This document shows positions 1,966-33,084 of a DNA stretch of 33,989 nt, in pieces. Each line of letters begins with the position of its first letter. Position 1 is the first letter of the stretch. Location: the NCBI GenBank assembly GCA_002633005.1, contig NMRA01001255.1, positions 1-33,989 on the forward strand, in the 5' to 3' direction. The notes under the pieces were generated by a model, which worked only from the letters and a program-made list of their open reading frames with translations, was not told where the DNA came from and searched no databases. Made by a program: the position numbers and the translations under genes. This DNA is from Phoronis australis (lineage: Eukaryota > Animalia > Phoronida).

Positions 1966-3819
1966 AAGAGCACCAATGAGGCACCAACGATGAATCTTCA
2001 AGTGTAGCCACAAACGTTTTCCGATCGCCTAATGCTCATTGAATCTTTGGGGACAAAGGTCTCTTTTCAAAATATAAAGGCGTAATCTTTGGGACCTTCT
2101 TGAAACTCACTTTCACCATATTAAACTCTCTTCTGCGTGTGGTCCTGTCCCTAAAGTTTCTGGCTCATGTCTCAAAATTGTTTAGACCCAGCTTTGAAGT
2201 GTAGCCTGGTTCAGTAAACTTATACTTGACCACCACAAAGTAAACGTCTCCTCTTCTAGACTAGCCTTAAACCGTGATTTAGCCTCCTGCTTGTACATTT
2301 GGTTACAAGAAACCTGTGAAGTCCTGGTGTAGCTTAGTTGTGCATGGTGGTGACATTGGATAACCACGTAGAATACATGTACCATTTTTTCTTTCCAGTC
2401 ATTGTCTGGAGCCGGTGAAAAGGAATTATTGCTTACAGACGCTCCCCGTTTGCTTTTGAGTGACAAAAACGCCCAGGCTGCTTCGTTAAGAACTCAAGAT
2501 CAGTCGTGTTTTCTGCGTCGTGGGTACAGTGTTGTAAATATATGTCGTAACTGAATTTGGGCACCTAGGAAATAGTAAATGAAAAGAAACACTGACATGA
2601 GACGGAAAATAATTGCGAATTGTCTTACTGATTTATTAAACTCCTCGTTATCTATCAATTACTGCATTATGTCTTTCATGGTGCAACAGCCGTAATCCCC
2701 GACGCCATTTCTAATGCAGTTATGGAAGTAAAAACACTACATGTACATGTACATGTACATGACTACCACTGGCGGCGCACAATAAAGGGCTGGGGGGCTC
2801 TAACCCCAGTTTTTTTCAGTGCTCTGGCGCCCATGTCCTATGGGCAGTGTGCCACAGAGTGGCTGGGGGGGGGGGGCTATAGCCCGACTTTTTCCAGTGA
2901 TGCGTCGCCCATGCTTCGTCGGCTATAAGGGTGTACGGACGCCGTTCGTGCACCAAACAGTCATTGTGAGAACAATCCCAAAGACTTGTTTGGTTTTATT
3001 TTCTTGGTCCGTAACTTCGAGTTACAGACACCCAATACATACTATACATTACCAGCAGCGCTATCTTGCATGTACTTAAAGTGCTTAGTGAAATTTATTG
3101 AACATTGAATCATCATTTTGCATACATGTGCATATCGGCACTTTCTGCTTGCTATAAGTCTCCTTCAATAGCATTCACACGAGTGAGGCCCGCTACAGAA
3201 ACCTCCCCTGCGCCCTCGCACCATGCAATCAGCTGCACACGACCACGGAAAACAAGTTCGACGCTTACTTCTTTGAACCGAACCTGGAAAAACATAAAAA
3301 GGGTGTGTATTTCTATCCCCTGAAGGCTTTGGACGTGTACTGTACATGTACATGTACACTGCAATTCCTGTCTCTTAAAAGGATACTAAACCCTATTTTG
3401 ACGATTTCTTCCAATCCTCGTTCTATACCTGATAATGAATCATTGGCGTCAAAGTGGCGCTGGAATCAATTAAAAACGTGTACTCCTTGCATCACATATT
3501 GGACATTATGGTCTTTGGTGGACGGGAGTTTCCCACAGTTGCCGTGTAATTTGCTAAACGTATAGGTCACGCTTGCCCATTTAGCAAACCTGGAAATTAG
3601 TTTTCAAAATTCCCTCCAAACTTCTAAGGGTTATTGCGGTTTACAGGGCATTATTTTGTTTCAAAGAACTGGATGGGAAAGTCGTTTTTAATATCTGCTA
3701 ATAGGTCAAAACCTGGTTCGGTATCCTTTTAACCAACAAATAGTCAAATTGTTTGTTTTACAAACTTCAGTAACGTTGATCCGGATATTTTTGCTTAGAC
3801 CTGCTTAGTGCCGAGGCAG

Positions 3820-3868
3820 CACCACCATCAACAACGACAACAACAATAGTAACAACAATGACAACAGC
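3820..3868. repeat. Degenerate (AAC)n microsatellite
   Basis: CACCACCATCAACAACGACAACAACAATAGTAACAACAATGACAACAGC. Confidence 0.8.
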
Positions 3869-4895
3869 TTTCATTAGTTGCAAAGACATAAGACCTTCTG
3901 CCACTCAATGCTAGCAGACCGGTGTCATTATTCTGGTTTTTTAACAGAAAATCAGAAGCAGAACCCGCAATATTCCTGCCGTGTATGGCCAATGGATTGA
4001 CCAACACCTACAGGTATGAACGGGTTGCCTGAAAACACGTGCCCGTAGCTTTAGGAGTACGCACCCCCACACCTCCTCCCCCCGCACAACGAGTGGAGGG
4101 AATATCAAGTCAAATACAGGGTACATTAGGCTAGAATAACCATGCCTGCAGAAAAATTGATCGTGGCCGAGGTGAGCGGGGCCGGGGTGCAAAGCGACCG
4201 AGGGGTCGGATTTCAGCTTTAGCATTCCCTCGTTTTAATAACTAGCTACTGGCGTGTCACTATAAATGTTGATGGTCCATCGTGGTTCGATGTTTGCAAA
4301 TTCACAATGATTGCTAAAACACGTCATGGATGTCATGCTCTGTTAGAACTCAGCTGTTGCAGAGACAGCGGTAGAGTCGTGTCACGTGATGCGATTACAA
4401 AAGCATCGTACCTTCTTTGTCTTCATTAAGAGGAAGAGCTTGAAGAGAAACCGCAACTAAGACAAGTGTCAAAATCAGAAAGAAACACTCTCTCTTCATT
4501 TTCGAGTTGTGTCAAGGCTTCAGTTCACGCTGTAATATAAATATTTTACGTCACTCTAAAAGTACGAATATAGCGTACATGTACATGTATTTGTAAGCAA
4601 CACGGGTTCAAACTACTATTCTAATCTTTCTCACATGTCTTCAAAAACCAAAACTTATCTAAAATGTTTTAATGCGTAAAAGAACACTCATCTCTATCTT
4701 GGTCTAACAGTTACCTCTAGATTACTGGAGTGGCCCATCACGCGCATTAGTCCTTAGTTGTGTAAAATTTTGAATGATTATTACAATGTTTTTCTAAATC
4801 GGCGTGTAGACCAAAGTTTGATGTGAATAAGTCTAGCCCTGGGAGGACCTCCACCCTTGTCGTACCAACAAATTTATTTTGAGACACAATGCCAA

Positions 4896-5100
4896 TAGTG
4901 TGGCTCAATGGTTTAAGCTCCGGACTCCTGTTTTTGAGGACTGAGTTCCAACCCTGACTTCACTGGTTCAATGGCTGACAATCGAGCATAGCACAAAGGT
5001 GTCTCCTATTCATCTGAGGTCGGTCTTACTTGAGAGTGTATACAAGTAGGTACATAGGAACCTCGATATAATGCAACAGCGATTGATGAGGCCGTGCTCT
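4896..5100 (+). mobile_element. tRNA-derived SINE, family 1, copy 1
   Basis: A box TGGCTCAATGG (4901-4911) and decayed B box GAGTTCCAACC (4943-4953). The body shares CCGGACTCCTGTTTT, CAATCGAGCATWGCACAAA and GAACCT.GATATAATGC with 21636-21860. Confidence 0.7.
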
Positions 5101-6762
5101 TAATGTTTATTACGATGGTAAAATGCTTAAACCGAAGAAATCAAATCGTTCATGTACTGCGTGAGCAACAGCAAGGGACGGGATTAGTTCAGTGTGAACA
5201 GACCTGAGGGTCTAATTTTTGTACACGATATCGAACTCGAAAATTTGTTGACATTTATACGCTTGTGCTAACTCCGGATAAATGTGGAGTAAAATATGGT
5301 TTAAGCATATCAGTTTCTAATCTACATGTATGTTCGCGATTGATGACCTGACGATTCGAGCTGCAGTCGACTAAAAACTCGAGATTCCGAGTAATATCTT
5401 GAAGTTTTGAGTTCAGACTCTAACTTTTAGCCTCAACGTCGGGATCACAAAGTGCGCTAAACGAAGATTAGACACCTACATGTATCTACCCAAGCCTTTA
5501 TTTGCTCGCGCATAGAACGCTGGACACACTTTCTGAGTTTGCGCAAATTAAAGTACATATAGAAAAGAAAATGACAAAATGATTTCTAGTTCGACTTAGA
5601 ATGCAAAGATTGGACCCTGGGTTTAATTTCCATATATTTAGAATGTTACACTTTACCAGCTAATAATGCGTCAAATTACACACAAACGGCTGTTAAGAGA
5701 AACATTGACTACTGTCGATTCTAGTCGCCTCGCAAGTCCTCCCATACATTTGGATGACGCACGCTGTTGTAATGGTCGACAGTCCACCCGCTGTTCAATA
5801 ATCATTCCAAAAACGGAGACACGTATGTTAGAATTTCTAATAGATGACGCAAATTTCGTAAGGTTTTTGCTTTGCGTACCGTATGGCCCTTAACAGCACG
5901 TCCCTGTCACAAAGACTGCGTCTACATGTAAGCTCTCACACGTATGTGTGCAAGCTGAATAACTCAATATACGGTACAATGTTAAAGATCTCCCAAAACC
6001 TGAAACGCTCTCAAACAAGGATTCCATGGTCTCCCATTTTGAAAAAAGTACATGTACTCAAAATACAAAAGCACACACACTTACTGTACAAGCGAGTCAC
6101 TCTTCTGTCCTGAGTTGTTATTAGCGACTGTTTTCTGCCGTTCGTAATACGTAACCATATTTATATGTCTGCGTGACGTTAAAAGTGCAGCACAACGTTT
6201 GATAAAAACATTAATAACATAATTAGTCCTGGGTAGAATTTCGTTATCACGTAAATTTCAAACCAAATATGATCACGTGATTTGCGGTAGAGTTCTTGCT
6301 TTTCTCACAAGAAACTAGGCTTAAGGAACAGAAACGTGGTTTATTCCCAACTTCGCCTGACGTCTACTCCTCGCTGATCATGACCAATTTCAGCTTACAG
6401 TGTACATGTGTACATCAGACGACTTTTCTTCTTGAAACTATCGACAACTAAAAATATTCTTGGTCATCGCATCAACTGACAAAAATTAGCAAACATTGAG
6501 TAGAACAAACAGTCTATTTTCGTTGACCTGGCCGCATTTAATTCTACTAATTACCAAATGTGTTTAATCAAGAAATTTGTGTTAAAGCAAATAGAACTAG
6601 GTGATTGTGTACAGTGTAATTGTGGTATCACACAGTTTAGTGTTTTTTTTACTGTGTAGCGTTAGAGTGCATTCGAGATTAATTGTAGGGCAAGTGCTTG
6701 GCAGGTAGTATGAAGACTATTGATATACTTAAATAGTTGAAGATATAAATATAAAAAATAAA

Positions 6763-7254: not shown

Positions 7255-7925
7255 AGGCAAAAATTATTGAGGGGTGGGGTAGAAACCAATTCAACTTCGC
7301 CAAACTACCCCCTTCCTATTGCCAGCACCCCAACCCCTTTCACCGGATGCCTCCATAATTTTACCAACCCCACGCCCTCCATAGTTGGGGGGGAATCCCT
7401 GGATGCAGCCTTCAGGATTTGAGTAACCTTGAACCAACAAAATTTTTCGGAGAGTAAGAATGGGTCTAGGGCCAGCGCAGTGACGGCCGGGTAGGTGGGA
7501 GCTGCCTCAAGTAACTGTAGCTGAGATCTAACAGTATGAAAATATGAAATTCCATAACTAGAGCTAGTCGTTGCTCAGGTCAGCTATGATTCACTTGAAA
7601 CAGGCTCGTACCTACAATGTTTCCTTCTGCGCTGGCTATAAGGAAAAGATTCATGTAATTATGATCCAGTTTCGTTAAAAGTTCATTTTATAATGACAGT
7701 TCTTTGAAGGAATTTTTTAAAGGTGAGCTCCCGAGGTCCCTGGTAGAGTGCCTTCAAGGCTGTTTCAGAATCCCTTGATGAATCACATCCGGTAGACCCA
7801 TCTCTGGTTGCTGGGGAAAATGATAGATGTCGTGACTGTCTCAAAAATGTACACAGTTCAACGCCTGGAGTTCAAATTCTGTGGAACTCTAAGATTCTGC
7901 GCGGGCCTTTTGCATGTTTACACCA
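7255..7925 (-). repeat. Old dispersed repeat (~650 bp), inverted relative to 33085-33720
   Basis: Colinear shared blocks: GCGCTGGCCCTAGACCCATTCTTA, TTTTGTTGGTTCA.GGTTACTCAAAT, CAAGTGAATCATA, TTCATCAAGGGATT, ACCAGGGAC.TCGGGA.CTCACCTTT, TCCTTCAAAGAA. Identity is roughly 70-75% by eye. Confidence 0.85.
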
Positions 7926-8020
7926 GCCAGTCATTATGTGCTCTGTTTGTGTAGTATTTACGCGACTGGTAAGCAAACGATTCAGTTTTAAAGAATTTGG
8001 ATTCATTGCGCAATACCATT

Positions 8021-8462
8021 GTGCCGGGTTGCATGAAACAGTCCCAAATAGGGACTCAACTAAGTTCCCTAAATCTTTTGCCTCTTTTTGTCTTTGTTTA
8101 CTTACAGATGCAATCTTTTGATATCATTTCATCTTCATTTTGAGGTCCAATTTGCATATTGACATTTTGTAAGAAATAAAACTAAAAACTGAGTCCAGAA
8201 TTCAATGAAAATAAATACATGTAGGCACTTAGTCCTTAAGTTAGGAGCGTTGCACGAAAAGATCCCTATATATTTTCGATAACATTGAGACTTCAACGTC
8301 CAGTTCACCCTCGATTTGTATCAAAGCCAAAAGTTGACTTAGTAATGAAACTAAAACAGCAGAAAAAAGGGCAATCGATATTTTCACAAGTCCAAAAATA
8401 CGCAGTGGATTTAGGGAACTTAGTTGAGTCCCTAATTGGGATTGTTTCATGCAACCGAGCAC
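8021..8462. mobile_element. MITE with 55-bp terminal inverted repeats
   Basis: 8021-8075 (GTGCCGGGTTGCATGAAACAGTCCCAAATAGGGACTCAACTAAGTTCCCTAAATC) matches the reverse complement of 8408-8462 at 51/55. The interior is AT-rich and non-coding. No clean TSD. Confidence 0.85.
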
Positions 8463-9255
8463 TGGAAACTAAAAAACATCAAGGAAGTGCAAAGGCAACC
8501 TTTCCAAGTTGATGAGAAATGAGCATAAATTGATTTATAAGTACTTAAACCTCTTTTCCCGCCTCCGGTTTCTGAATTTAATCCCACTAATCTAGCTCTT
8601 CATGTATGCGAAATTTAGGCGCATGCGCCAATATGCGAATCGCTTGGCTAAAAAATGTCGCAAAAAGGCATGGATGCATACATGTATATGTACAGTGTAC
8701 ACGTGTTACATGAGCCTAAAGGCTCGGCAATACGGTTAAAAGTCATGCATACTCTTAGTACTTAGGCTTTTAGATGCCCCTTTTATGATCACGGCATTGC
8801 GTTATGAATTTCATTCTTTTTGTAATCAGATACTCCTCTGTTGCAATTCAGTTTAATGTTGATGATGTTTGACCTTCTGATACGACGCGTTTTGATACAT
8901 TACGGAAGTGTGTGACATTATCAACAACTCTGTGTATTTAGTGGTGTAGAAAAATCAGATATCCTGACAAAACTATGAAAAACAAGCGTTGTGTGATATT
9001 TTCACAAGTCATTTCTTCATAACTTCATGGTCAGTTTATTGATTTAGTGCCAAAAATAACCGCAATTTGCCAAAATGACATACAAATCACCTTTGACTCA
9101 AGCGATGCTTCGTTCAACGTAACGTATCTCCAATAATTGGAATAGACAATAGCTTAAACCTCTACCTGCTCTTCCTCAATGTGTTACGCCTTGAACTCAT
9201 GTCTCTGTTTTCACATTGGAAGTAAAAACAACATAAATTCATCAAATTTACTCAC

Positions 9256-9474: not shown

Positions 9475-10602
9475 TTAACATCATGACCAAATTCTAATTA
9501 ATAAAAATGATCAAGATGATATCTCAAAAACACCGGAACGGTTTTTAAAACTCATTTTGTTTTTGTTTTTGTTTTATGCAACTTTTGATTTTTTTCATAA
9601 AAATCATCAGTGATCAGTTATTTGTAAGCATTTGAAAAGCATAAAGCACAGTTTCAGAAAAAAATAAATAATTCCTACCCAACGTTGTCACCCATCTCTG
9701 AGATAAGGATGTTCGGAATTGTCAATTTTGGATGTTTTTCTACAGTCCTACAAAAAATTAACGCCAGTCACAGACATGATAGATGTGTTAATTCAACATT
9801 GAAGGGCCTCAAATCAAGTTTTGCCTCTGGCCCCTAAATGTTTAGGACCGGCCCTGGGTAGCAGTCAATGGGAGGTGGTCCACTTCAGTGTAAAATGGTT
9901 CACCATTCGTTCCCCAAATCGTATGTTGCACGGTATATACTTGTCAGACCTACCTTCAAATAATTCAAAGCGGCTGTAAACCCATATTCCGTCGAAGTAA
10001 TTAAGTTTTGATTGAGCCCACTGATTGACGTATGACCTTTGACCTAAAGTTAACTTGTTCGTTGCTCAGATGAGAAGTGTATGATGTGTTTGGTTAGATT
10101 GGCAGGGCGCTTATACTGACACGCCATCACTAGCCAACTTATAGAACTATAAGCTTGGTACAAATCAATAAGGAGCGGTCAGTTCTTTCCATACCCCGAA
10201 ACCACCTCTGAGTTCACTACAGGACACTTTTGAGACCATTCTTTCGGTGAATGTTATTAATCAGATGTTGTCAAAGCCAAGTAAGTTTTTGTCGTAATCG
10301 GACAAAAAGGACATTTCTGCATACGAGCCATTTTTAGTGAGCACTTATTGCTAATCAGACAATGGGCACATTGGGAGAGTTCACGTTTTTCAACAAAAGA
10401 TGCATTCACGAAAACTAATTCATGTTTTTCTTGGAGGATCTGATGCCAACGCCTTCCCAAGCAGTCAATGTTCTATTGTCCAACAGTTCACTGCTACAGT
10501 CTCGTTTTGATGATGATGGAAATTCAAACTCGCAACCATCGATATTCATGAGAGTGATAAATGAAGCAACAAAAAGACAATTGATGGTCGCTTTGACAGA
10601 TT

Positions 10603-10608
10603 TTTATT
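10603..10608 (-). terminator. Polyadenylation signal AATAAA of the defensin-like gene
   Basis: TTTATT on the + strand, shortly downstream of the predicted stop in exon 4. Confidence 0.5.
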
Positions 10609-10653
10609 TTGCCTTAGTCGTCAATACATTTATATGGCATCCATGTCGTTGAC

Positions 10654-10664
10654 CTACCAAGTCG
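10654..10664 (-). CDS. Probable terminal exon 4 coding part (adds S-T-W-stop)
   Basis: Strong acceptor TTTATTTTCAG| at 10665 with an upstream CTAAC branch-like motif. The phase-1 join gives TCG ACT TGG TAG, and AATAAA lies ~45 nt after the stop. An alternative acceptor at 10979 cannot be excluded. Confidence 0.55.
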
Positions 10665-11349
10665 CTGAAAATAAAGTATTAAACGTTAATTAATTACAGC
10701 CGTTAGAAACTCGAGCAGAAAATGAAAGACACTTGAGCTGAGTACAGACTGTTGGAGGTAGAGAGGCGAATTTGCAAAATTCATTTCAAAGTTATACATG
10801 TAGTTTTAGTTAGTGTAATGGATTTCCGCCAACATTGTCGACTTGTCCAGTGAGATGAAATCATCGATCACAACTTATGGAAATTAATCCGAAGTAATTT
10901 TGTCGACTTTGCTACGCCGCCAGGCTGTTTCTATCGGCACAAAATTTGTCGTCCTTTGTCGATTTCCACAGACGAAAACTGAAAGAAGTTGAATCTCTTT
11001 GAATAGAGACGGAGACAACAAACTTGAGTTATCTGACTCGTGATCCAAAGCCTTGCAACTTTCGTCCATGAACATAGAACGCGCGAACCAGTCAGTCATC
11101 GCTCCCCAGCAGAAGCAGAAAAGCGGCTCTAAAATGTCGGAAAAGTAATTTTGCAAAGAATTCCATTTGTTGTGATTTATGATTTTTCATCCAGTTATTC
11201 ACTTGGATGAGTGCGTGGAAACCTTCACCGTCTGTAATGTCCCCGTGTTTTTCGGGTCAAGTTAAGTAGGGATAACGATGAGCAAAACATAATAACTACA
11301 AGTTTTAACTTTGGAATAATTTAAAAATTATTCCAAATTCCCTGACACA

Positions 11350-11864
11350 GGGGACCTAATCTCCAAGTTCAGACTTGAACTCATTTATCTAAGTTCTCGA
11401 AATCGTTTGCGTACTTGAGACGTTCATAACTCACATGGGTAATCTCTTTCTATCACCTTCTCTTTATCATGAGCTCTTTCTGATTCATGACAAGCTCTGG
11501 CAATATTACTAAAATCGAGTCTTTAGTTCAGTGAAAATAAGTAGAGGCTAAGTCCGAAATTTGGGGCGTTGCAGTAAATTAACAGTTCTCTACTTATGTT
11601 CCATAAAATTGAGAAGTCAGCATAGAATTCAATCTCGTTTTGCATTAGGAATAACACTAAAACGCCATAAGAATGGACAATACATGTAAGTGTTTCCACA
11701 AGTCCACAACTCGGCAGTAAATTTAGGCCGAAACTCGCTGGAGTTCTAATTGGGTCAGTTTCACGAAGGCAATGGGGCATTTGTCCCAAATTGTCTTTCA
11801 TCGTCAATATCTCGCGTAACCTCGTAAAATCTCGGTTTTTCATCGAGCTCCTTGCGTTAATTAA
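11350..11864 (-). pseudogene. Decayed L1/Tx1-like LINE apurinic endonuclease remnant (second copy ~14290-14946)
   Basis: One frame (with stops) gives, in order, LINARS, RLREIL, CLRETD, SYGVLVLF, YCNAPN, VIERDYPC and MSSSLNL. These resemble the APE-domain motifs SLNVRG, KRxxIF, CLQETH, SxGVAIL, IYAPN, IxGGDFNC and LNLxD. Confidence 0.45.
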
Positions 11865-12361
11865 CTCTACCCAGTGTTGGAAAATTAGAAACCAAGCCCT
11901 TCAGTCATAGGTGTAAGATTTGGAAGGATCTTATTCAGGCTAAAACGGCACAGTGGGCTCTGCTCTGTGATTTGAAAACTGATGCGGTGATACGGTATGC
12001 ATGTAGTTTTACTTTATAGAAGTCACATAATGCGTTGAAGTGGTGCGCGATTTTTTCCAGTATCGGCGATCCAATATTCGGTGGTACTCTGATCGACCGG
12101 AGTTGATTGCACTCGTGGCCAGTCGTGAGGTATTGGGAGCTGACTGCGACCCAAAACCACACCACTTGCAACTAAAGAAGTGACGATTCCTGCTAAGGTA
12201 CGTTACATTAGTTTGTGTAGCTTTTGGATCAAAAAGTGTTAAAATTGTTGGGGTTGGGCGCTGCCTTCCTTTAAACATTGAGGCGCAGTTTTCAAAAAAG
12301 TTTAGTCGCAGACCAGATCCAAAAATTCTATTTTTTGGAATTTGCATACGTTTTTACTTAC

Positions 12362-12490
12362 AATCGAGACATTTGCAGAATTCAAACCCGAATAAGTTGC
12401 TGCAGTACCCGCCTTTCCTATGCCCTCCTTCTTTGCATCTTTTGCGGCATTTCCTCCCATTACAAGATCTGCGGAATCTTTGTAGGGCAT
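12362..12490 (-). CDS. Exon 3, copy A: furin site plus CS-alpha-beta defensin-like domain, (D)ALQRFRR-SCNGRKCRKRCKEGGHRKGGYCSNLFGFEFCKCLD
   Basis: Acceptor CTATTTCAG|, 129-nt phase 1-1 exon, donor T|GTAAGT. It has the same six-Cys framework as copy B, an RFRR site and net charge about +6. It is read in a different frame from the ORF-track call 12302..12490. Confidence 0.85.
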
Positions 12491-14087
12491 CTGAAATAGA
12501 GGGCATTATTCACGTGTAAAATACATTCGTACTTCATTCCATAGAACTATAGCCCTGGAATACCAACTGCAATCTCGTGGCCGTTGACGATGCAAAGCGC
12601 ATGCGAGAGAGTTGCTTGCTTTCACTTGTTCCGTTGTGTGTACTTGCATGCTCTGGAATCTACTATCACTTATGCTTTTCGCATCTCCCCCATTTTCAAC
12701 GGAATTGCAAAAGAGCCATATCACCAGAAAGCCTTTTGCCATTCAATGATGCCTATACCAGAATTCATAAGTAATTATCATTTCGCATACATGACTGGTT
12801 TAAAATATTTTTTAATTCTAAAAACCAAGAGTGTTACCAAACTTCGACAAACAACAGCGTGTAATAGTAACATAAACAGGAAGTGAACCAGAGAGGTTAT
12901 AAAAATGACTAGTTAAGCCATTACAGAAAGAATTTGAATGATTTAAAAGATTTCTTCGATATAAAAATAAAGGTTTAGAATATGGATCCCTCACATCCAT
13001 TGTGGATAATTTAGTCAGGCACTTATCCAAAATTATACATTTTTATGTATTATAATTAACTGAACCTTTTTTGGAGTTTGATACAATTACATTCTTCAGA
13101 AAAATTTGTATTGAAGTAACATTTAAGAAAAATATGGTAAACTACTCCAGGTATATATCCGAAAGTTGCTGATAAAGGTTGTTTGATAGATAAAAATGGG
13201 GAAAATCTACCACAAATCTTTGAAATGCACGGTTTATACATCACCATATTAGCTGCGGTGTAGGAATTCCCATAATAACTTAAAAATAAATTCTTTTGTT
13301 CAGAATATGAAAGTTTGTGATCCTGATACATACATGTACACTGTATATTCTATGTTACCGTAAACAAGAGACATTGGAACACGTCTTTACGATTGTTATT
13401 TTAGTAAAGGCAGTGGAGTCTAGTCATTGACAATATTCATAAAAAGAAACAGTGTTATTTTGAACACCTGTTGTATAGTTGTCAAGGTCAACATTAATGA
13501 ACGAAAAAACGGAACAGTTGGATTGAAAAGCGGTACTTCATGATAAAAAGCGAGACACCTGGGTCTAGGCCAAAACGTAAGGATGAAATGTTCGCTGCAA
13601 CCATAGACTATCGTGAGTACATGGACCACCAACTCCATATATTTTCAATGGACGAAATCTATGATCTTACGCATAAGCCGTGACGTTATTATTCACTAGC
13701 GACACCTGACAAAATCAGCAAGTATTACTTCCGGCAAGCATGGTTGGGTGTTCGGCCACACAGGCGAAATGTAAAGGTCTAAGTTTCCACAGCAGTGACG
13801 TTTGAATTACGCAATTACATGACCAATAGCATTGCCAAAAGTACTTCTGCTATTGGAGGCTTTGAACAGCGTTTCAGCAAAGTACATGCGAGCATTTCGC
13901 GGAAACTAAAATTGGTAATTTAGGAGGGTGGCGCCGTCTCTAGGATGATTTGCAAGAAAGCGTTGGGGGTTGCGAATCTATTGATCTATGCTGCAACACA
14001 CAAACGTGCAGAACAGGAGATTTAACACCCAAAAAATCTCGACCAAGTTGCACAAATAAATTATCATGAAACAAAAATTATTAAAAN

Positions 14088-15778
14088 CTAAAATGTCGGA
14101 AAAGTAATTTTGCAAAGAATTCGATTAGTTGTGATTTATAATTTTTCATCCAGTTATTCACTTGGATGAGTGCGTGGAAATCTTCACCGTCTGTAATGTC
14201 CCTGTGTTTTTCGGGTCAAGTTAAGTAGGGATAACGATGAGCAAAAAATAATAACTACAAGTTAAATTATTCCCAATTCCCTGACACAGGGGACCTAATC
14301 TCCAAGTTCAGACTTGAACTCATTTATCTAAGTTCTCGAAATCGTTTGCGTACTTGAGACGTTCATAACTCACATGGGTAATCTCTTTCTATCACCTTCT
14401 CTTTATCATGAGCTCTTTCTGATTCATGACAAGCTCTGGCAATATTACTAAAATCGAGTCTTAGTTCAATGAAAATAAATAGAGGCCTAGTCCAAAATTT
14501 GGGGCGTTGCAGTAAATTAACAGTTCTCCACTTATAACAGCTTATTATTTAAAATGACTTATTCTTATTAAAATGACATAGGCAAAAAATTGAATTTCGG
14601 ACCTCAAAAGTGAGGCCTCCTATATTAATATAGGAGGCCTCGCCGAAGGGAGGCCAGAGAGCGGGGTTCCTCTATATTAATATGGAATGCTCCGCCGAAT
14701 TGAGAAGTCAACATAGAGTTCACTCTCGTTTTGAATTAGTAATAACACTAAAACGACATAAGAATGGACAATAAGTGTTTCCACAAGTCCACAACTCCGC
14801 AGTAAATTTAGGCCAAAACTCGCTGGAGTTCTAATCGGGCCAGTTTCACGAAGGCAATCGGGCATTTGTCCCTAATTGTCTTTCATCGTCAATATCTCGC
14901 GTAACCTCGCAAAATCTCGGTTTTTCATCGATCTCCTTGCGTTAATTAACTCTACCCAGTGTTGGAAAAGTAGAAACCAAGCCCTTCAGTCATATGTGTA
15001 AGATTTGGAAGGATCTCATTTAGGCTGAAACGGCACAGTGGGCTCTGGTCTGTCATTTGAAAACTGATGCGGTGATACGGTATGCATGTAGTTTTACTTT
15101 ATAGAAGTCACTTAATGCGTTGAAGTGGTGCGCGATTTTCTCCAGTCTCGGCGATCCAATATTCGGTGGTACTCTGATCGACCGGAGTTGATTGCACTCG
15201 TGGCCAGTCGTGAGGTATCGGGAGCTGACTGCGACCCAAAACCACACCACTTGCAATTAAAGAAGTGACGATTCCTGCTAAGGTATGTTACATTAGTTTG
15301 TGTAGCTTTTGGATCAAAAACTGTTAAAATTGTTGGGGTTGGGCGCTGCCTTCCTTTAAACATTGAGGCGCAGTTTTCAAAAAAGTTTAGTCGCAGACCA
15401 GAACCAAGAATTCTATTTTTTGGAATTTGCATACGTTTTTACTTACAATCGAGACATTTGCAGAATTTCAACCCGAATATGTTGATGCAGTATCCGCCTC
15501 TCCAATACCCTCTTTCTTTGCAACTTTTGCGGCATTCCTTCCTATTGCAAGATCTGCGGATTCTCTGTAGGGCAACTGAAACAGAAGGCATTATTCACAT
15601 GTAAAATACATTCGTACTTCATTCCATAGAACTATAGCCCTGGAATACCAACTGCAATCTCGTGGCCGTTGACGTTGCAATGCTGCAACACACAAACGTG
15701 CAGAACAAGAGATTTAACACTCAAAAATTCTCGACCAAGTTGCACAAATATATTATCATGAAACAAAAATTATTAAAA
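14088..15778. repeat. Duplicated segment copy B (X' plus Y'); lacks the 1.39-kb A-only segment and carries a ~153-bp B-only insertion
   Basis: Begins CTAAAATGTCGGAAAAG, identical to 11129. It is colinear with copy A at a few percent divergence outside exon 3. Confidence 0.95.
15447..15575 (-). CDS. Exon 3, copy B: furin site plus CS-alpha-beta defensin-like domain, (V)ALQRIRR-SCNRKECRKSCKERGYWRGGYCINIFGLKFCKCLD
   Basis: Acceptor CTGTTTCAG|, 129-nt phase 1-1 exon, donor T|GTAAGT. Cys spacing is C-x4-C-x3-C-x10-C-x8-C-x-C with a GGYC gamma-core. An R-x-R-R convertase site precedes the mature peptide, whose net charge is about +6. The phase matches exon 2. Confidence 0.85.
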
Positions 15779-15797
15779 ACAGTAATAAGGCAAACAC

Positions 15798-15800
15798 TCT

Positions 15801-15831
<31 letters not shown>

Positions 15832-15860
15832 GAGCACACGCGCGCGCGCAAATACACACA
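15798..15860. repeat. (CA)n/(CG)n compound microsatellite
   Basis: Directly visible alternating purine-pyrimidine tract. Confidence 0.9.
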
Positions 15861-16870
15861 TTCACACTTACATTTAGCTAAGCAATTATGAGTAATTTTT
15901 CAAAAGTTCCGTAAACACATCTACATAGATATATGTATTTTAGGGCCTAAACATTTTGCTTAGGCCAAATGTAACTTATTTCCGCAAAATACTGTAAACA
16001 TGATTTTTAAGTCCTTATATCAAAGTATAATTTAGTTCAAAATCTTAAAAATATGTATCAAATTAAGTAATATGTAGCATAATGTTCACATCTTGTCTGT
16101 TATCAAACTAAAAGCCTTTTTGAGCACAATTTTTCTCCTCTGCCGAGATCAGAAAATCGAATATTTCCGTTTCCTATCGTGACCTAAATTCCTTTGCCGG
16201 TTCAGGAACGATTCCTGAATAACGGACATGTTGTCCTTGAAAACGTACATTGTATTGAGATCACCGTGAGCGTGAGCGTTGTTATTTTGTCTGGTTGTTT
16301 TTGATTCTCATTTCGGTTCTTTTTATACAAACTTGACTACCCGGACGTGTGAGCGCAGTGCGTACGTGGCAGCAAATAGGCAACGGCTTTACTGGCCGTT
16401 AAAAATGTTAAAAAAACATCCATACACGGCGATGTTCAACAAAAAACAAGTGTTACCACAAAAGAGTGAGCCTCACATCTCAGTTGTAATAACGAACACC
16501 TGTGCTTGATTTTGTTGTCAGGACACAGTAACCGGCGGCGTGACTCTTCGCTGGGAAAATAATAACTTGTTAAATTGGCTTTGATTTCCAGTTATTAGGG
16601 ACAGTATACATGTATTTCAGAACCTGACAAAAACTTACAATATATACCTCTGGGCCAAGCTGCATAAAAGTTATACGCCGTAAAGGAACAATGACCTCGC
16701 ATTATCACGAGTCACGTTGTTATTGTTGAACAATGCCTCTGACGTCATTGTCATTAAACAATCAAACTTATCAAGCGGACGTGACGGGTCCAGTTATATT
16801 TATATAGCATGACCCGCAATGATGGGTCGAGTTATATTTATATAGATAGAACCATCAAGGTAGGTGAAGC

Positions 16871-16903: not shown

Positions 16904-18080
16904 CGTTGAAAAGTAAGCTGTTCTTTGCTTTAATTAGTTTGTACAACAAACTTTCGTAGTGTCTACACAAGTGTCTTTCATCAGATGGTAGTTGATATAA
17001 TAGATCGCCCAGTGTAAGTGGCATCACAAACACATATATATGAGTAAATATATAATAAAACTCTGTACAAAACATATCATAATAAAACAGTAGCGGTACT
17101 TCGACTATACATCAGTCATCAAAGGCAAATAAATCTAAAAATTATCAACGCTATCGTGTATGATACATAAAACAAGAACAATGACATTAAACACAAATAT
17201 AAGGTTGCATACATAAGAGCGCAATTACAGAAGGAATTGTCATGGAAACTAAATTAAACGTACACTGTACTATGTAACATAGTAAAATTTAATAAAATAC
17301 ATAGGTGAAACAACTTATGGACATTATTTATATAACGACAAGGTACGATGGAACCCAGTGTCTTGAGAATTTATGTAAGGTGTTTCAGTTTTTATTATTA
17401 ATGCTTCAAGTATTTTCAAACGAAAGAGGTCACGTTCGAAATACCTGACGATGGTATTATCAACAATATCTGAACGAGAAATTTTCTGTTTGTGGAGTGT
17501 TTGGAAGTGATCTTTAATTGATCCATTCTGTAAGTGCATAGATAACCGGCGAGATAAAGTGCAAGTTGTATAACCAACGTACCTTGAGCAATCAGTGTTT
17601 GAACGAATACATTCGTTGTGGGGACAATTGAACTGATAAATCAAGTCAGTTTTGGCTAACACTCGGACAGACTTTGAGCACATATTGTTTTTAACAACAA
17701 GATCTTTAGTTTTGTGGTTTTGGTAATATATAATTAATTTAAAGCTGTCTTCTGGCTTAACGGTCTTAACATTATTATGGATGATCCGTTTTAAAACTCG
17801 TTCATCTTCAATATAACGTGAATGGAATTGGTTGCGGTAGAATAGTTTTTTGGTACAACCACTTGCTTGTTTTAAACACATAGGCTTCTGCAACTGGCTT
17901 ATGAAAAGCTTCACATTCTCATCAACAAACTTATTGCTGTAACCGTTATTTATCATAATTTGCTTAATGCGATTACACTCGGTGTTGAAGGTTTTCCAGT
18001 CTGAGCAAACGGAATATGCTCTTTTCAAAAAGCTTGTCAAAACAGAGACTTTATATCTCAGAGGACATTGGCTAGTTTCG
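16900..18080 (-). mobile_element. 5'-truncated Penelope-like retroelement (PLE) with C-terminal GIY-YIG endonuclease
   Basis: An ORF encoding the RT thumb/linker and GIY-YIG domain is followed by a ~420-bp 3' region ending at (TA)n. The 5' end is cut at the (TACATA)/(TA)n tract. Confidence 0.9.
17324..18076 (-). pseudogene. PLE ORF C-terminal fragment (RT thumb, linker, GIY-YIG nuclease)
   Basis: SQCPLRYKVSVLTSFLKRAYSVCS...NNGYS is typical of the PLE thumb region. LIYQFNCPHNEC...YVGYTTCTLSRRLSMH...SIKDH...LKILEALII...INSQ supplies the GIY-YIG motifs including the conserved R, E and N. The RT core is absent and the TTG start in the ORF track is not a true start. Confidence 0.9.
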
Positions 18081-18082
18081 TG

Positions 18083-18160
<78 letters not shown>
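18083..18160. repeat. (TACATA)n/(TA)n microsatellite at PLE 5' end
   Basis: Directly visible. Confidence 0.95.
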
Positions 18161-18161
<1 letters not shown>

Positions 18162-20351
18162 CTGGACTCATCACGACGGATCTACACTACTGCAATAGGT
18201 GACAGGTCCAGTTTATAGATAGACCCATCCCGAATTTGGTGTCCCCAGTTACAAAGAGAGACTTCGCTGATCAACATTTACCGACAGGTGTACCCACCTA
18301 TAATCATATTTCATGTAGAAACACATATCTTTTTGTGGGTGTCCCCATTTTAGTCCTTGAAAAGCAAAAATTTACCAGATAAGAAAAGTTAAAATAATTA
18401 AAATTAAATAAGAAGCTGTTGGTAGCTCTGTGCAACTGGACCCTCTGATTGTCTAAATATAAAAATTCCACGACGAGAAATTATTGCGGTATTACGAGCA
18501 TGACGCGATATCTTTTAATCTCTTTGTCACACGAATTTCACTTATTCCTGGCCTGGGTAGCTAATTAATGTGTTCATCATGCTTGTGGAACACAGATGTC
18601 CCTGCACGACAGGCCAGGCTGTCTGGGCGGTGGGCCAGATCTCATAGCATTCACTCTTGTGAGTACTTTGGGGGGGGGGGGCAACCTATGTGACTACAAA
18701 ATACACTTATATTTCAAATTCCAAAAAGTTCCCACGTCTACCCTTGCACATTTTTTTAAGAAAAGTTGTTTTTGTTGCAAGAAATATTACGCACATTCCT
18801 GCCACTTGGTGGCACTTTTCTATTAAATTGACCTACATGTACCAAAGAGCCAGATTGTATTGTTGTGCACAGCAACTTAAATATGGCAGCTCCCATGGAT
18901 AATTCAAGGTTTCTCAAACAGCACTAAATTTTAATACCCACAACCTGAAGAAGCTTAGAGAAGCATCATGACAAAAGTTGATTGATTATGTGTATCAGAA
19001 CAAACGAAAAAGAACGATGTGTCACAAACGTTTGTGCAGGAAAACAGTTGCTTTGCCCAACTGGCTTATACACTGCAGCATGTTCTGCTTATACTACTCT
19101 AGAAGACTAAGCGTCATAACTAAAATTGAAAAGGCATAGAAACACGCATAGCAACGTTTCAAAACATCAACAGTAGTAATAAAGCTGAAGCTGCCGAAAG
19201 TGACACAGTTGTTACCCAAGATTTACCATGAAAATCAATTAGATTTGTAAAATATGAAGCACCAAATTAACCTGAAATTCATACATTCTGACACATTAGT
19301 GCATCATTTGCGAGCAGGAAAACTATGTTATGGGTCATATTTCAAGAAAGAGAGAATGAGGCAACTTTCTATAGCTTTGAATATAAAACAGGTTTGTGTG
19401 TTTTTATTGGGTACATCTTAGTGTTTTCGATGTGTGCTTAGTATTTTCACCAGTTCTTGTTTAGCTTGTTCAGTCCCTTAACGTTTCAGGCTGTAGACAA
19501 TAGTGCTGTCTCAACTGGCCCAGTAGAGAAGGTGGCCATGTCATAGGTTCTCCATATGCCGGACGTTTTTCGGCACATTTTGCATCACACTGATTGAACA
19601 ATCGAAGTCATGTTGCTTTAAGATTGAAAGTACCTTTTGAGCACTAGAAGGATGACTTAGGGGGCCGTTAGTTTCTTTATATTTTCCTAGCTTGAACAAA
19701 TACTCCTGAAATCCTGTTTTTCAAAGAGTTCGTCATTGCCCAAATTGAAAATCGACCATTTTTACACTGATTGCGTCAGGGGATAATCGTATGGCGTTAT
19801 ACTGTGGGTCTGATTTTAAGCACTTTAAATCAAGCGTTTTTGGGGAAGGTTAAAGAGAGTAAATGTTGCAATGAACTGTTAAATCAACGTGCGCAAGTGT
19901 ACCTCATCCCCCTCCGTAATCCTGGAACAGGGGCAACTTCTTCTGAATTTTTTGCAAACTGCAAACATTAATTACTTAGGTAGTTGCAATGGTACCTAAA
20001 TTAAAATGCCCGACTGGCCGGCGTCTCCGTAGTAATCTGAGGACGGGGGAAGCCCCTGCCCATTTTGTCAAACGTTCTGCAAACATATTGGCTATGGTAT
20101 GATCATCTGATTAAAAAAATAAATTTCAATATCTGCATTGGTACATCAGCGGACTCATTTTCAGTCGCATCAATTAATCTTATTGGACACGGTCAAAATT
20201 TTTAGGCGACAGATCACTGACAGACCGCTCCTTAATCTGTTATGCTAGTTTTTGATAAATTTCCGATACATGTAAGTCTGTCTGAAAAATGTGCATACCA
20301 GCACCCTGGTAGTTGAATGTTAAATCAGTGATACCAGTTTGCATTTTTCAG

Positions 20352-23380: not shown

Positions 23381-24443
23381 CGATATCGTAACTCTAGCGA
23401 TAGATTTACTAGAGTTACTAAGAATATCGATAGAGTTAATAAGTCTTTCGATAGAGATAGAAAGTCGATCGACAGCGATAGTAAGTCTATCGATGGAATT
23501 AGTAACTCTATCGATAGAGTTAGTAAGTCTATCAATAGAGATAGTAAGTCTATCTTTGAGTAAGTAAGCCTATTAACAGAGATAGTAAGTCTATCTATAG
23601 AGATAATAAGTCTATCGATAGAGTTGTAACTCTATTCATAGCGATACTAAGTCTATAGATGAAGTTAGTAAGTCTCTTGATACAGTTAGTACGTCTACCA
23701 ATAGAGATACTAAGTCTATCGATAGAGTTACTAAATCTATCGATAGAGATATTAGGTCTGTCTATAGAACTAGTAAGTGTATCGATAGAGAAAGAAAGTC
23801 TATCGATAGAGTTAGTTAGTCCACCAATAGAGTTAGTAAGTCTATCAATAGAGATATTAACCCTATCGACAGAGTTAATAAGTCTATCGATAGAGTTAGT
23901 AAGTATGTTGATAGAATTAATGTATATCGATAGAGATAGTAAGTCTATCGATAGAGTTAGTAAGTCTATTGATAGAGATAGTAAGTCCATCGATAGAGTT
24001 AGTAAGTCTATCGATAGAGTAATTTAGTCTATCGATAGAGTTGATAATTCTACCGACAGAGGTAGTAAATCCCTCAAAAACGATAGTAAGTGTATCGATA
24101 GAGTTAGTAAGTTTATCAATATAGGTACGAAGTCTATCGATAGAGTTAGTATACCTATCAATAGAGATAATAACCCTATCGACAGAATTAATAAGTGTAT
24201 CGATAGAGTTAGTTAGTCTCTTGATGGAGATAGCAAGTCCACCGATAGAGTTAGTAAACCTATCGATAGAGATATTAACCCTATCGACAGAGTTGATAAG
24301 TGTATCGATAGAGTTAGTAAGTCTATTGATGGAGATAGTAAGTCCATCGACAGTGTTAATAAATCTATCGATAGAGTTTGTAAGTCTATCAATAGAAATA
24401 GTAAGTGTATCGATAGAGATGGTAAGTCTATCGATAGAGTTAG
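23381..24443. repeat. 21-bp minisatellite, consensus AGTAAGTCTATCGATAGAG(T/A)T, about 50 units
   Basis: Clear 21-nt periodicity. The consensus unit contains the 12-bp palindrome TCTATCGATAGA, and GAGTTA/GAGATA variants often alternate. This array explains the LSIELVS/SIDR heptad ORFs. Confidence 0.97.
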
Positions 24444-25097: not shown

Positions 25098-25179
25098 CTC
25101 CGTCTCCGCCATCTACCGACAGCGCCTGGAGGCAGCCCACAGCCAGCATCAACACAAGGAATACCACGACGCACTTCAT
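25098..25179 (-). CDS. Exon 2 coding part: signal peptide plus start of propeptide, MKCVVVFLVLMLAVGCLQA-LSVDGGDG (phase-1 end)
   Basis: Acceptor TTTCAG| at 25193, exon starts 25192, ATG at 25179. There are 82 coding nt (27 codons + 1) ending GAG|GTGAGA. The N-terminus has a basic residue, a hydrophobic core and a small-residue cleavage site (LQA), typical of a signal peptide. GC content is higher than in the flanks. Confidence 0.85.
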
Positions 25180-25940
25180 CACTTCTAGTTTTCTGAAATA
25201 CAGTCTCAGACCAAGTTGATACAAGTATATAAAAGGAGAAACAAGTACATGCATATGAGATTAAAACAAACTGTGAATAAGCCATAGTAAATCTTTCTCT
25301 CATCTATATAACAATTACCCTTCCGTATTATCTGCAAACACTGTGTCCCATAGGTTTCTAAAAAACAGTGCAGGTGGCCTGATGTCATTTTGGGTGCATC
25401 AGATGTGCGCAGGCCTCATGGTTGGACCCATTGCTAAGAACCGTTAAAGAATCAAGTATCTTCACGCGTCTCTGCGAATTACCTTAAACTCCATGTTGTG
25501 AATTGCAGATTTTGAATTTATACTGGTGACAATAAAAAAGTAAAGCCCCCCCCCGAGCCTGTTTCGTTTTGCTCCAACACTGCTCTTCTTTGTCTACAGT
25601 ATTGTTTTACGATATTTGTTTTACATCGTGTGTTGGTGCAACGAGCTGACACTTCCACATGTATACTAATATTTAATCCAGAATCACAGGTTTTCACATT
25701 TTACAAAACAAATTCTTCGTTTTGATAAAGACAAGTGAATTGTTGCATGACCAGTACGCGGCACCCTATTGAACGGCTCTCTTATATTCACTGCGTTACA
25801 AAGCGTCGTCTTATTACTTTGAGAAACGATCTTCCTCCTAATGGGACCTTCGTCCTTTCTAACGAGTTTTAACGAACTGGTAGTGTTACTGGCTAGCCTA
25901 AAACTATGCAGCCGTACGCAGTGAACATTAAATTACTTAC

Positions 25941-25972
25941 CTGCTTAATCACCAGTGCTGTGTATGCAGTAT
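25941..25972 (-). other. Exon 1 (non-coding 5'UTR) of the defensin-like gene
   Basis: Starts at the Inr, contains no ATG and ends in AAGCAG|GTAAGT. The intron (25940-25193) ends at TATTTCAG, just before the signal-peptide exon. Confidence 0.7.
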
Positions 25973-26090
25973 GGAGCAATCCTTAAACTATGCTCGTTTT
26001 TATAGCCCTTTAAGTCCCTCCTCCACCTTTTGATTGGTGGATATTTGGAACATCACTTCTAGTCTGGGTAATGCATTGTTTAACCAATCA
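25968..26090 (-). promoter_or_regulatory. Pol II core promoter of the defensin-like gene (CCAAT box, TATA box, initiator)
   Basis: Minus strand reads CCAAT (26037-26033), then TATAAAAA (26004-25997), then CCATACT matching the Inr consensus YYANWYY with the A at 25972, 32 nt from the TATA T. A second, oppositely oriented CCAAT is at 26084-26088. A perfect CAG|GTAAGT donor follows at 25941/25940. Confidence 0.75.
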
Positions 26091-26714: not shown

Positions 26715-28122
26715 AGACCCTATTCACGCCGACAGGAGGCGCGTTCCAAAACGAGGCTCGCTACGATAGCTCTGTTAGCTTATCGTCATAGGAGTCTGTG
26801 TTTCAGTCCGTGTTGTTCCCCGAACGGCTAGAAAAAATACGGACACGCTTCACAATCTCTAAAGACGTTGCCATACGCCGACGAAGCAAAATATGTCCGT
26901 GTAAAATAAATGTTTTGGAAAAGTTAGATCATATTTTGTCGCGTCTCGGTCAGTTGTCAAGCATCATAGTAACGACTGGAGAATGGGCCAGCCAGGTTGT
27001 ATTTTCATGACAACGGATTTAGGGGGGGGGNNNNNNCCCTCTCAAAAATATTGAAATATCACGCGAAATTCCCCCCACGAGGCACAAAAATTCCCCTAGT
27101 GAAAAATCTCTCTGAGTTCACATAACCTGTAACCACACAGGTGACAATTTTTAAGAGCACAAAAGGCTACTTTAAAATGAGACAGAGCCTATGAGAGCTT
27201 GCAACAGGGCGGGGGTGCTATTGATGGTGATCGGGAGGTAGACTGTTCCCGCCCTCACTCGGCGAAAAAATCGCCTCTCAGTAGGCACTAGCAACGTGGG
27301 CCTTTCCCCTCGGATGAACGAGGTTTCTACAGAAACATGATAACTATGATTTCATTGTCCAGTTAACTGAAATTGAGTTCTAAAACGAGGTTACGTTTTG
27401 GACGAACGAATTAGGTATTTTAATTTTAAAATTCAACTTGGTCCAAATTGATACTTGAAATCTAACACATGAAATAGACGTAAGAATTATTACAACCAAG
27501 AAAGCAGAATTGATGGTCAAATAATTTTTATTTTCAATTACGATTCTGGTTTATTATTTTAATAAAAATATATCTAATAACATCAATTATTCTTTCAGAT
27601 CAATGACAAATCAACTGTTAGTCCCAGGGAGTGCATAGGATCAAGCTATGCTTGATTTTAATATTCTTGATCAACAAATTAAACCAGATGTGACTAATTG
27701 CACATGACAGCCACCACTGTCGAATATGTCTTCAACTCGTCAACAATACGAGCAGATGACCTGGTCCGCGTAGAAAGTATTTTGATCAACATTTTACAAG
27801 AAAAAAGTAACCTGCATTCAGCATAATACCTAATCCGTAACACTACGATCGCCGCAATTTGGTCATATTTACTTTTCATGTTTCGAACCTAGTTTTCCGA
27901 GAAAAATTAAACCCTTTCGTCAGACAATTCTTTGACGCCTTAACTTGTTCTCTAATGTAATTTTCTACGTCTGTGTGGTTTAATTGTTGACACATTATTA
28001 AATTCAATATCCAGGTTGGACTCGAAAGACCGGCTATTTAACTCACGCAATGTCTACTTTCGCTTTGTTTATCGCAGTCAGCCTCGCTTTGGATTTTAAT
28101 GTCTGCCGCGTGAATAGAGTCT
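26715..28122. mobile_element. Non-autonomous TIR DNA transposon, ISL2EU/PIF-Harbinger-like
   Basis: TIRs AGACCCTATTCACGC (26715-26729) and GCGTGAATAGAGTCT (28108-28122) match at 14/15 and are each flanked by AT (26713-14, 28123-24), consistent with an AT TSD. No intact ORF. It contains an N gap at 27031-27036. Confidence 0.65.
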
Positions 28123-32900: not shown

Positions 32901-33084
32901 TAAATAAAATCAAACTTATTGCTCATCAACTGGGAAATGTTCTCTTTGCACTTCCTTGATGTTGTTAGTTTCCAATAGTATTGCGCAATGATATCTCTTT
33001 AAAACTGACTCATTTGCTTTCCATTCCTGTGCATACTACATACACGGAGCACGTGATAACTGACGTACCACGATAAAAATAAGG

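Follow-up and report, generated by a model that had tools for sequence, protein, structure and literature searches.

The marks of false heterotype duplication given in the available part of PMC9516828 are a gap between the two copies and half depth over them. As for antimicrobial peptides, the CS-alpha-beta cis-defensins of invertebrates, plants and fungi, together with the short scorpion toxins, share six cysteines, the C-x3-C and C-x-C elements that define the CSH cysteine pattern, and a GYC gamma-core, though the six-cysteine pattern does not tell defensins from toxins; myticins have eight cysteines (PMC5116183, the portion available). Mussel myticin C (PMC3164099), oyster Cg-Def (PMC2823732) and the Drosophila antimicrobial peptide alleles (PMC4874389), of which the last are under balancing selection, vary in the mature peptide, in a manner rich in amino-acid changes, according to the parts of these sources that were available. 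Both old balanced polymorphism and conversion from paralogs are known for invertebrate antimicrobial peptides.

In the window analysed here, the whole stretch of 33,989 nucleotides of Phoronis australis contig NMRA01001255.1 (assembly GCA_002633005.1), one segment is written twice. The preliminary description had given its structure as X-[1.39 kb]-Y-N-X'-Y', and self-BLAST and global alignment bear this out: X is 11129-12594, the insert found only in copy A is 12595-13987 (1393 bp), Y is 13988-14086, the N is 14087 and X'Y' is 14088-15778. With self-BLAST E-values of 0.0 (X pieces) and 2e-40 (Y), chance cannot account for the similarity. In the global alignment, 4.5% of the aligned columns (69 of 1538) carry a substitution, and B has deletions of 20, 6 and 1 bp relative to A. 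The N, described earlier as the sole one, is indeed the only one within 11129-15778 and separates the last letter of Y from the first of X', but six further Ns occur in the window, at 27031-27036. The parts of the segment are as follows.

11129-14086, no strand: copy A, haplotype A, with part of intron 2, exon 3 and part of intron 3 (self-BLAST, global alignment, contig paths)
12595-13987, no strand: insert of 1393 bp present only in A, mostly pieces of multi-copy repeats (global alignment; contig depth summing to hundreds or thousands along most of its length)
14087, no strand: single-N scaffold join of two haplotype segments, likely not in the genome (self-BLAST, graph predictions, no crossing piece among those listed)
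14088-15778, no strand: copy B, haplotype B, the same segment as copy A (self-BLAST, global alignment, contig paths)
14536-14696, no strand: insert of ~153 bp present only in B, a very high-copy repeat (global alignment; bin depth up to ~35,000 in run X2)

A search for terminal inverted repeats of at least 8 bp bounding the A insert found none. The locus that contains the segment is predicted to have four exons and to encode a secreted CS-alpha-beta (defensin-like) peptide with six cysteines; its minus-strand transcript would consist of exon 1, exon 2 with the signal, exon 3 in form A or B, and exon 4, and each chromosome would carry one exon 3.

25941-26004, minus strand: exon 1, predicted non-coding, with a TATA box at 26004 and a GT donor after 25941 (predicted from the sequence alone)
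25098-25192, minus strand: exon 2, single copy, with ATG at 25179, a predicted signal peptide, a short pro-piece and a phase-1 donor (boundaries; hydrophobic core with Kyte-Doolittle values up to 3.7)
15447-15575, minus strand: exon 3, allele B, with an RIRR site and cysteines spaced as in A (two RNA reads spliced from 15447 to exon 4)
12362-12490, minus strand: exon 3, allele A, with the end of the pro-piece, an RFRR site and the six-cysteine mature domain, spaced C-x4-C-x3-C-x10-C-x8-C-x-C (AG/GT boundaries)
10603-10664, minus strand: exon 4, with the last codons, a TAG stop at 10656-10654 and a 3' UTR to AATAAA at 10608-10603 (spliced reads)
3165-6165, minus strand: neighbouring defensin paralog, ~6 kb downstream (Pfam Defensin_2, PF01097)

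Exons 1 and 2 are presumably joined to exon 3, the link between exons 2 and 3 lying outside the RNA coverage.

The DNA evidence on the duplication consists of contigs from short-read runs of one sample, probably the assembled animal, in a listing beyond which lie a further 114 joints and 7163 pieces. These contigs are haplotype mosaics, some of their rows were assigned to records by equal depth only, and the graph predictions use k=31, a value assumed from the text of the tool. On the left, the flank crosses 11128|11129 unbroken in three runs, with at least 31 letters on either side, and continues into sequence of the B type:

10663-11287: run X2, record 9, with a B letter at 11222
10434-11304: run X3, record 18, with B letters at 11164, 11168 and 11181
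11037-11586: run X4, record 26, with a 20-letter gap, the size of the B deletion

On the right, an X3 contig of depth 6.2 (depth-matched to record 23, which reaches 16363) is of the A type at 15751, from where it runs on into the right flank. Each flank is thus linked to either copy, and no DNA piece among those listed crosses 14087. The flanks are heterozygous as well, with other letters at 14 of 623, 19 of 890 and 11 of 484 positions in X3 contigs.

These paths run against a true tandem of exon 3 on one chromosome, for which the graph prediction is a second entry at 11128|11129; a tandem junction needs a branch that the DNA graph lacks. At the right-flank end A and B have only 27 bases in common, and the required 31-mer is missing from all four tandem models. 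The end of the A sequence points in the same direction: an A-only contig of X2 (record 13, depth 18.4) terminates three unaligned letters beyond 14086, that is, at 14089, which is the position predicted by the allele model, whereas a tandem predicts an end at 14116-14117, the junction giving ~30 more aligned letters past 14086. Neither contig paths nor graph predictions place exons A and B on one DNA molecule, and a tandem junction would, moreover, have to fall exactly on a gap character. What favours the tandem is that exons A and B are both 129 nt long, in phase 1-1 as first described, with intact AG/GT boundaries and an R-x-R-R site in each, and could be joined in frame, although intact exons in the same phase are equally expected of alleles. 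The exon divergence of 13%, higher than that of the introns, would also be possible for paralogs under selection. We nevertheless consider it highly improbable that the two exons form a real tandem, whether mutually exclusive or serial, the latter giving a furin-cut precursor of two defensins. Even less credence can be given to a copy-number polymorphism, with A and B in tandem on one chromosome and a single copy on the other. Tandem organisation and recombination have been reported for bivalve antimicrobial peptide genes (PMC3164099, PMC2823732, as far as the available parts go), but such an arrangement with a single A predicts a contig end at 14086-14088 and not the observed 14089, and the single copy would need a B-type start together with an A-type end.

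Contig depth, the only form in which the proposed check for half depth over the duplication could be made, agrees with two alleles in part. In X1 the A-only pieces have depths of 3.05 and 3.5 and the B-only piece 2.8, against 6.45 and 6.99 for the flanks and 6.92 for the collapsed piece; exon B in X3 has 2.8 against 5.5-8.0. However, the core of the A insert is flank-like rather than half (6.0 in X1, 6.14 in X3), and this equality with the flanks in two of the three runs with a listed piece there speaks for the tandem. X2 is ambiguous, its collapsed piece having a depth of 53.6, or 1.5-1.9 times that of the flank contigs (28.9-36.7).

The raw RNA runs, of which about 18-19% each was read, give a depth on exons of only ~0.2-1.9. 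In run X6, from another sample than the DNA, two reads splice exon B from 15447 to 10660 in the last exon, and in two others 10987, in the left flank, is joined to 14090, in sequence of the B type. RNA depth in the exon A bin is low (0.18-0.40), and run X7 has depth in that bin only (0.40 vs 0), which is too little for calling segregation. The joint 15447-12490, which would splice B to A, is not among the 6 + 4 joints listed, an absence that carries no weight at an exon depth below 2; the same holds for contig run X8, possibly RNA, which has no depth at any exon and carries no weight on expression.

Because of the contig paths at both flanks, the end of the A-only contig and the splice of exon B to the last exon, we conclude with high confidence that A and B are the two alleles of a heterozygous stretch of a single gene, which the assembly has erroneously placed one after the other and linked by a single N; the reading preferred at the outset, haplotigs scaffolded end to end, is thereby supported. 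As in the false heterotype duplications described in the available part of PMC9516828, a near-identical pair lies on one scaffold with a gap between its members, allele-specific letters and a heterozygous region, and depth is about half in the clearest run; unlike those cases, this one was examined on short-read contigs and not on mapped read pairs or long reads. Large allele-specific insertions probably prevented the merging of the two alleles, and the 1393-bp insert of A is likely the reason why the bubble stayed uncollapsed. The tandem exon is very likely not a real feature of the genome, and the suggestion of true tandem or mutually exclusive exons finds no support, given the missing tandem branch in the DNA graph and the lack of a listed DNA piece across 14087. 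As to the polyprotein proposed from tandem splicing, the B-to-A splice is in frame as stated, but the same DNA evidence speaks against it, and with A and B as alleles, the two-peptide furin precursor would be an artefact too. A literature search for multi-domain furin-cut defensin precursors gave unrelated matches, and we make no claim on prior publication. This negative result removes a false story of a modular two-defensin precursor, and it indicates that within genes the assembly holds alleles that were not collapsed, so that numbers of exons and genes in immune families would come out too high.

One effect of the artefact is that this uncharacterised defensin-like gene is represented by its two alleles, whose differences are concentrated in the mature peptide. 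A and B differ at 17 of 129 positions in exon 3 and at 52 of 1409 in the introns (Fisher p=2.5e-5); the clustering in exon 3 has p=0.0026 by a scan statistic under uniform placement, and one 129-bp window outside the exon carries 12 differences. Fourteen of the 17 exon changes are non-synonymous, so that 13 of the 42 residues encoded by exon 3, and 12 of its 35 mature residues, differ, while the six cysteines, the cleavage motif and the net charge are unchanged. With pN 0.132 and pS 0.117 (Fisher p=1.0), pN and pS are about equal and a dN/dS above 1 is not claimed. The excess of differences lies in exon 3 only and consists largely of amino-acid replacements; its most likely cause is the long maintenance of the alleles by balancing selection, with the reservation that only two alleles are available. 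It is plausible, though we propose it tentatively, that A and B are ancient and functionally distinct allelic lineages under balancing selection of the MHC type, a heterozygote making two antimicrobials.

Within the allele model, the excess in exon 3 could instead come from a short tract of gene conversion off a paralog elsewhere in the genome, an explanation that we find possible but rather doubtful. It would fit the synonymous divergence, which is raised too, at 3 of ~26 sites (11.7%) where the introns have 3.7% (p=0.07), although a very old balanced pair would raise pS as well. It would also fit the three further differences in the 24 bp that precede the acceptor, and the nearby paralog, by whose existence the defensin family is multi-copy; this sole paralog in the window is, however, too distant as a donor, with 43% identity to B, and a conversion has to be reconciled with the bias to non-synonymous changes that spares cysteines, cleavage motif and net charge. 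The locus resembles the polymorphic antimicrobial peptides of mussel, oyster and fly cited above in its amino-acid-change-rich mature-peptide variation, its small gene family and its intron size variation, but unlike them it is represented by two alleles only. With this pair one can ask if the alleles of an antimicrobial peptide act on different ranges of targets, a question already studied in flies and bivalves, to which the pair adds one more example.

A furin-type convertase would cleave the secreted precursor behind its RFRR or RIRR site and so release a single CS-alpha-beta peptide of 38 residues, which is cationic (net +6) and most likely acts as an antimicrobial; cleavage, fold and activity are all predicted. 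The cysteines C9, C14, C18, C29, C38 and C40 are invariant across A, B and the paralog and include C-x3-C, C-x-C and a third pair, and G-Y-C at the fourth cysteine, in both A and B, corresponds to the G-x-C of the gamma-core. The predicted structure (mean pLDDT 83.7, from a 3-row alignment) has a helix at 11-20 followed by strands at 26-32 and 35-41. A fold search of the PDB puts scorpion toxins and defensins from plants and insects at the top, with probabilities of up to 0.96 but E 0.23 or worse, none attaining E 0.001, and PDB sequence matches all have E 0.17 or worse. In these cysteines, the gamma-core, the predicted helix and two-stranded sheet, the signal and pro-piece and the cationic charge, the peptide is like the CS-alpha-beta defensins and short scorpion toxins of PMC5116183 (available part). 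Unlike them, A and B are without an above-cut-off Pfam match or a close relative in the databases searched: no family reaches its curated cut-off, Defensin_2 (PF01097) is not listed at E up to 1, a word search at 23-74 residues found no homologues, a search of longer proteins with alignment gave eight candidates but none at E 0.01, and a scan of 1.84 billion representatives gave none at E 0.001, the last three being weak negatives for a 42-residue query. Myticin identity (PF10690) was rejected, the peptide having six cysteines and not the eight of myticins, and its match to the profile being weak (11.4 against a 28.5-bit cut-off, E 0.39). Three longer open frames contained no Pfam domains. In the paralog, by contrast with A and B, the stretch 3168-3281 matches Defensin_2 with 28.8 bits at a cut-off of 20.4; its parts are a predicted non-coding exon (from a TATA box at ~6165 to 6085), a signal exon (4529-4412) and a defensin exon (3283-3165).

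Also unlike the known CS-alpha-beta defensins, a separate tiny last exon contributes three residues here. This exon 4 is single-copy in the assembly and has a second form in the reads: one DNA contig differs from the assembly at 10661-10662 and has 19 bp inserted at 10633, and the X6 reads joining 15447 to 10660 use this form, which is missing from the assembly. The threonine of the terminal STW stands as first read for the assembled form, and is replaced by phenylalanine in the second.

Self-BLAST and global alignment divide the duplicated segment into copy A (11129-14086), an N (14087) and copy B (14088-15778), which is the layout read from the sequence alone in the preliminary description; the N does mark the A/B join, but it is not the sole one in the window, since upstream of the defensin-like gene the assembly has another gap, six Ns beside a poly-G/C run (27031-27036). 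The global alignment contains 69 substitutions in 1538 aligned columns, three small gaps and one insert in each copy:

12595-13987, insert in copy A, 1393 bp
14536-14696, insert in copy B, about 153 bp

Judging by summed contig depth, most of both inserts consists of multi-copy repeats. Insertions of 2-3 letters at 14141-14146, present in single contigs of several DNA runs and in 5 of 8 reads of RNA run X7, perhaps come from low-copy relatives of this stretch elsewhere.

Copies A and B are, very probably, alleles of one locus that were falsely duplicated in the assembly. The DNA analysis covered four runs (X1-X4) of one sample and one study, all compared with 9800-16800; the assembly may itself have been built from these runs, which hence test it rather than provide independent biology. 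The evidence consists of contigs, which are haplotype mosaics, and k=31 was assumed from the tool description. Among the pieces listed, three contigs span the left boundary, extending at least 31 letters to each side of it, and all of them carry B-type features, though the assembly joins the left flank to A only: B letters at 11164, 11168 and 11181 (X3 record 18), a B letter at 11222 (X2 record 9), and a 20-letter gap matching the B deletion in size only (X4 record 26). A fourth contig, X1 record 2, is pure A and was left out of this count, having just 29 flank letters. On the right side, the A letter at 15751 stands in an X3 contig of depth 6.2 (record 23, matched by this depth) that runs on to 16363; past 15751 the copies share only 27 bases, and the 31-mer needed to lead from this letter into the right flank is missing from every tandem model. 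As for the end of A, X2 record 13 (depth 18.4) aligns up to 14086 and continues for exactly 3 more letters, while the end predicted for a k=31 graph is 14089 with two alleles, 14116-14117 with a tandem junction and 14086-14088 with a tandem plus a single copy. Position 14087 was crossed by none of the 32 DNA pieces listed. Thus the contig paths at both flanks, the A-contig end and the N at the join bear out the allelic reading offered in the preliminary description, and its alternative, a true tandem exon, is made unlikely by the same flank paths and contig end: the tandem feature is very probably not real.

Depth was given secondary weight. In X1 the A-only pieces (3.05 and 3.5) and the B-only piece (2.8) stand against flanks of 6.45 and 6.99 and a collapsed piece of 6.92, as expected from two alleles, so the half depth proposed earlier as a check is found here; it is not found in the core of the A insert (6.0 in X1, 6.14 in X3), which speaks against alleles, as does the X2 collapsed piece (53.6), well over the flank contigs (28.9-36.7), though the A-only pieces of X2 have depths of 18.4-20.5. 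Heterozygosity extends into the flanks, where three X3 contigs depart from the assembly at 2.1-2.3% of letters (a lower bound for mosaic contigs, one of which extends over the start of A), and therefore an intron divergence of 3.7% between the copies lies within the allelic range. The N at the join, the contigs tying both flanks to both copies, the A-contig end point and the partly half depth all match marks of false heterotype duplication described in PMC9516828.

The gene and its neighbour are arranged as follows:

~26004-25941, minus, putative TATA box and non-coding exon 1
25192-25098, minus, signal-peptide exon 2 as read from the sequence (ATG 25179), single copy
15575-15447, minus, exon 3 of copy B, 129 nt
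12490-12362, minus, exon 3 of copy A, 129 nt
10664 (start), minus, exon 4, the last, stop 10656-10654, single copy
~6165-3165, minus, second defensin gene (paralog), of similar layout

With either exon 3 the predicted precursor has 73 residues; behind its R-x-R-R site stands a peptide of 38 residues with six cysteines and a net charge of +6. The phase does not point to a splicing cassette, because a phase-1 intron behind the signal exon is frequent among secreted peptides (PMC5308243). The paralog comprises a predicted non-coding exon, a signal exon ending in phase 1 and a defensin exon, behind a basic cleavage site, that passes the Pfam Defensin_2 cut-off; the two genes are a small defensin cluster.

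The divergence of the alleles is concentrated in exon 3, with 17 differences in 129 bases against 52 in 1409 of the aligned introns (Fisher p=2.5e-5). For 69 uniformly placed differences, the probability of any 129-column window holding 17 is 0.0026, though the actual differences are clustered, and outside the exon one window of this length, the richest there, has 12. Fourteen of the 17 changes are non-synonymous and 13 of 42 residues differ, 12 of them among the exon's 35 mature residues; the cysteines, cleavage motif and net charge are the same. Positive selection is not demonstrated, since pN (0.132) and pS (0.117) are about equal. The excess fits an old balanced pair, and it also fits a conversion tract received from an unseen paralog; with 43% identity, the paralog next door is too remote to have donated it. 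For mussel myticin C, oyster defensins and Drosophila antimicrobial peptides, strongly variable mature peptides, recombination or conversion, and balancing selection have been reported (PMC3164099, PMC2823732, PMC4874389). The underlying gene is new, while its kind and its type of polymorphism are already known.

Both the cysteine spacing and the G-x-C motif agree with CS-alpha-beta peptides as defined in PMC5116183, where the six-cysteine pattern is also said not to separate defensin from toxin. In the model of exon B (pLDDT 83.7) a helix precedes a sheet of two strands; the closest solved folds are plant defensins, insect defensins and scorpion toxins, with no match reaching E 0.001. Neither allele passes a Pfam cut-off, and homologue searches with the exon 3 peptide found none in the databases covered. 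We infer an antimicrobial role from the fold, the charge, the arrangement of the precursor and the neighbouring defensin gene.

RNA from other samples, covering about 18-19% of each of three raw-read runs as well as one contig run, was compared with 10350-15785. Expression is low: depth was 1.46, 1.87 and 0 on the exon B bin and 0.18, 0.36 and 0.40 on the exon A bin in the raw-read runs, all with the first mate on the plus strand, consistent with a minus-strand transcript. Two reads of run X6 connect 15447 with 10660 through four intervening letters; these begin exon 4 in a version unlike the assembly at 10661-10662 (Thr to Phe), so exon B splices directly to an exon 4 form missing from the assembly. 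The two letters at 10661-10662 recur in DNA contig X3 record 18; most simply, this form belongs to the second haplotype, the phase being taken across individuals. The DNA contig with this second form also has a 19-bp 3' UTR insertion at 10633, absent from the assembly. Two further reads of this run pass from 10987 to 14090, into B-type sequence, which suggests for 10987-11130 another haplotype, one that has diverged over 30 letters and lacks about 110 bases immediately left of the duplicated segment. The B-to-A splice, proposed to yield a furin-cut two-defensin precursor, does keep the reading frame in the exon sequences; none of the joints listed corresponds to it, at an exon depth too low to weigh this absence.

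In intron 2 an array (23410-24443; 74% matches) repeats a 21-bp unit with a partly palindromic core about 49 times. Between TA-rich microsatellites of the same intron lies a 285-residue open frame (17324-18181, minus), without a Pfam match at E 0.01, which by eye we take to resemble the terminal part of a Penelope-type retroelement, with a GIY-YIG-like motif. Dispersed repeat pieces at 7283-8594 and 32845-33696, inverted and 77-80% identical, probably stem from a single transposable element present in two old copies.
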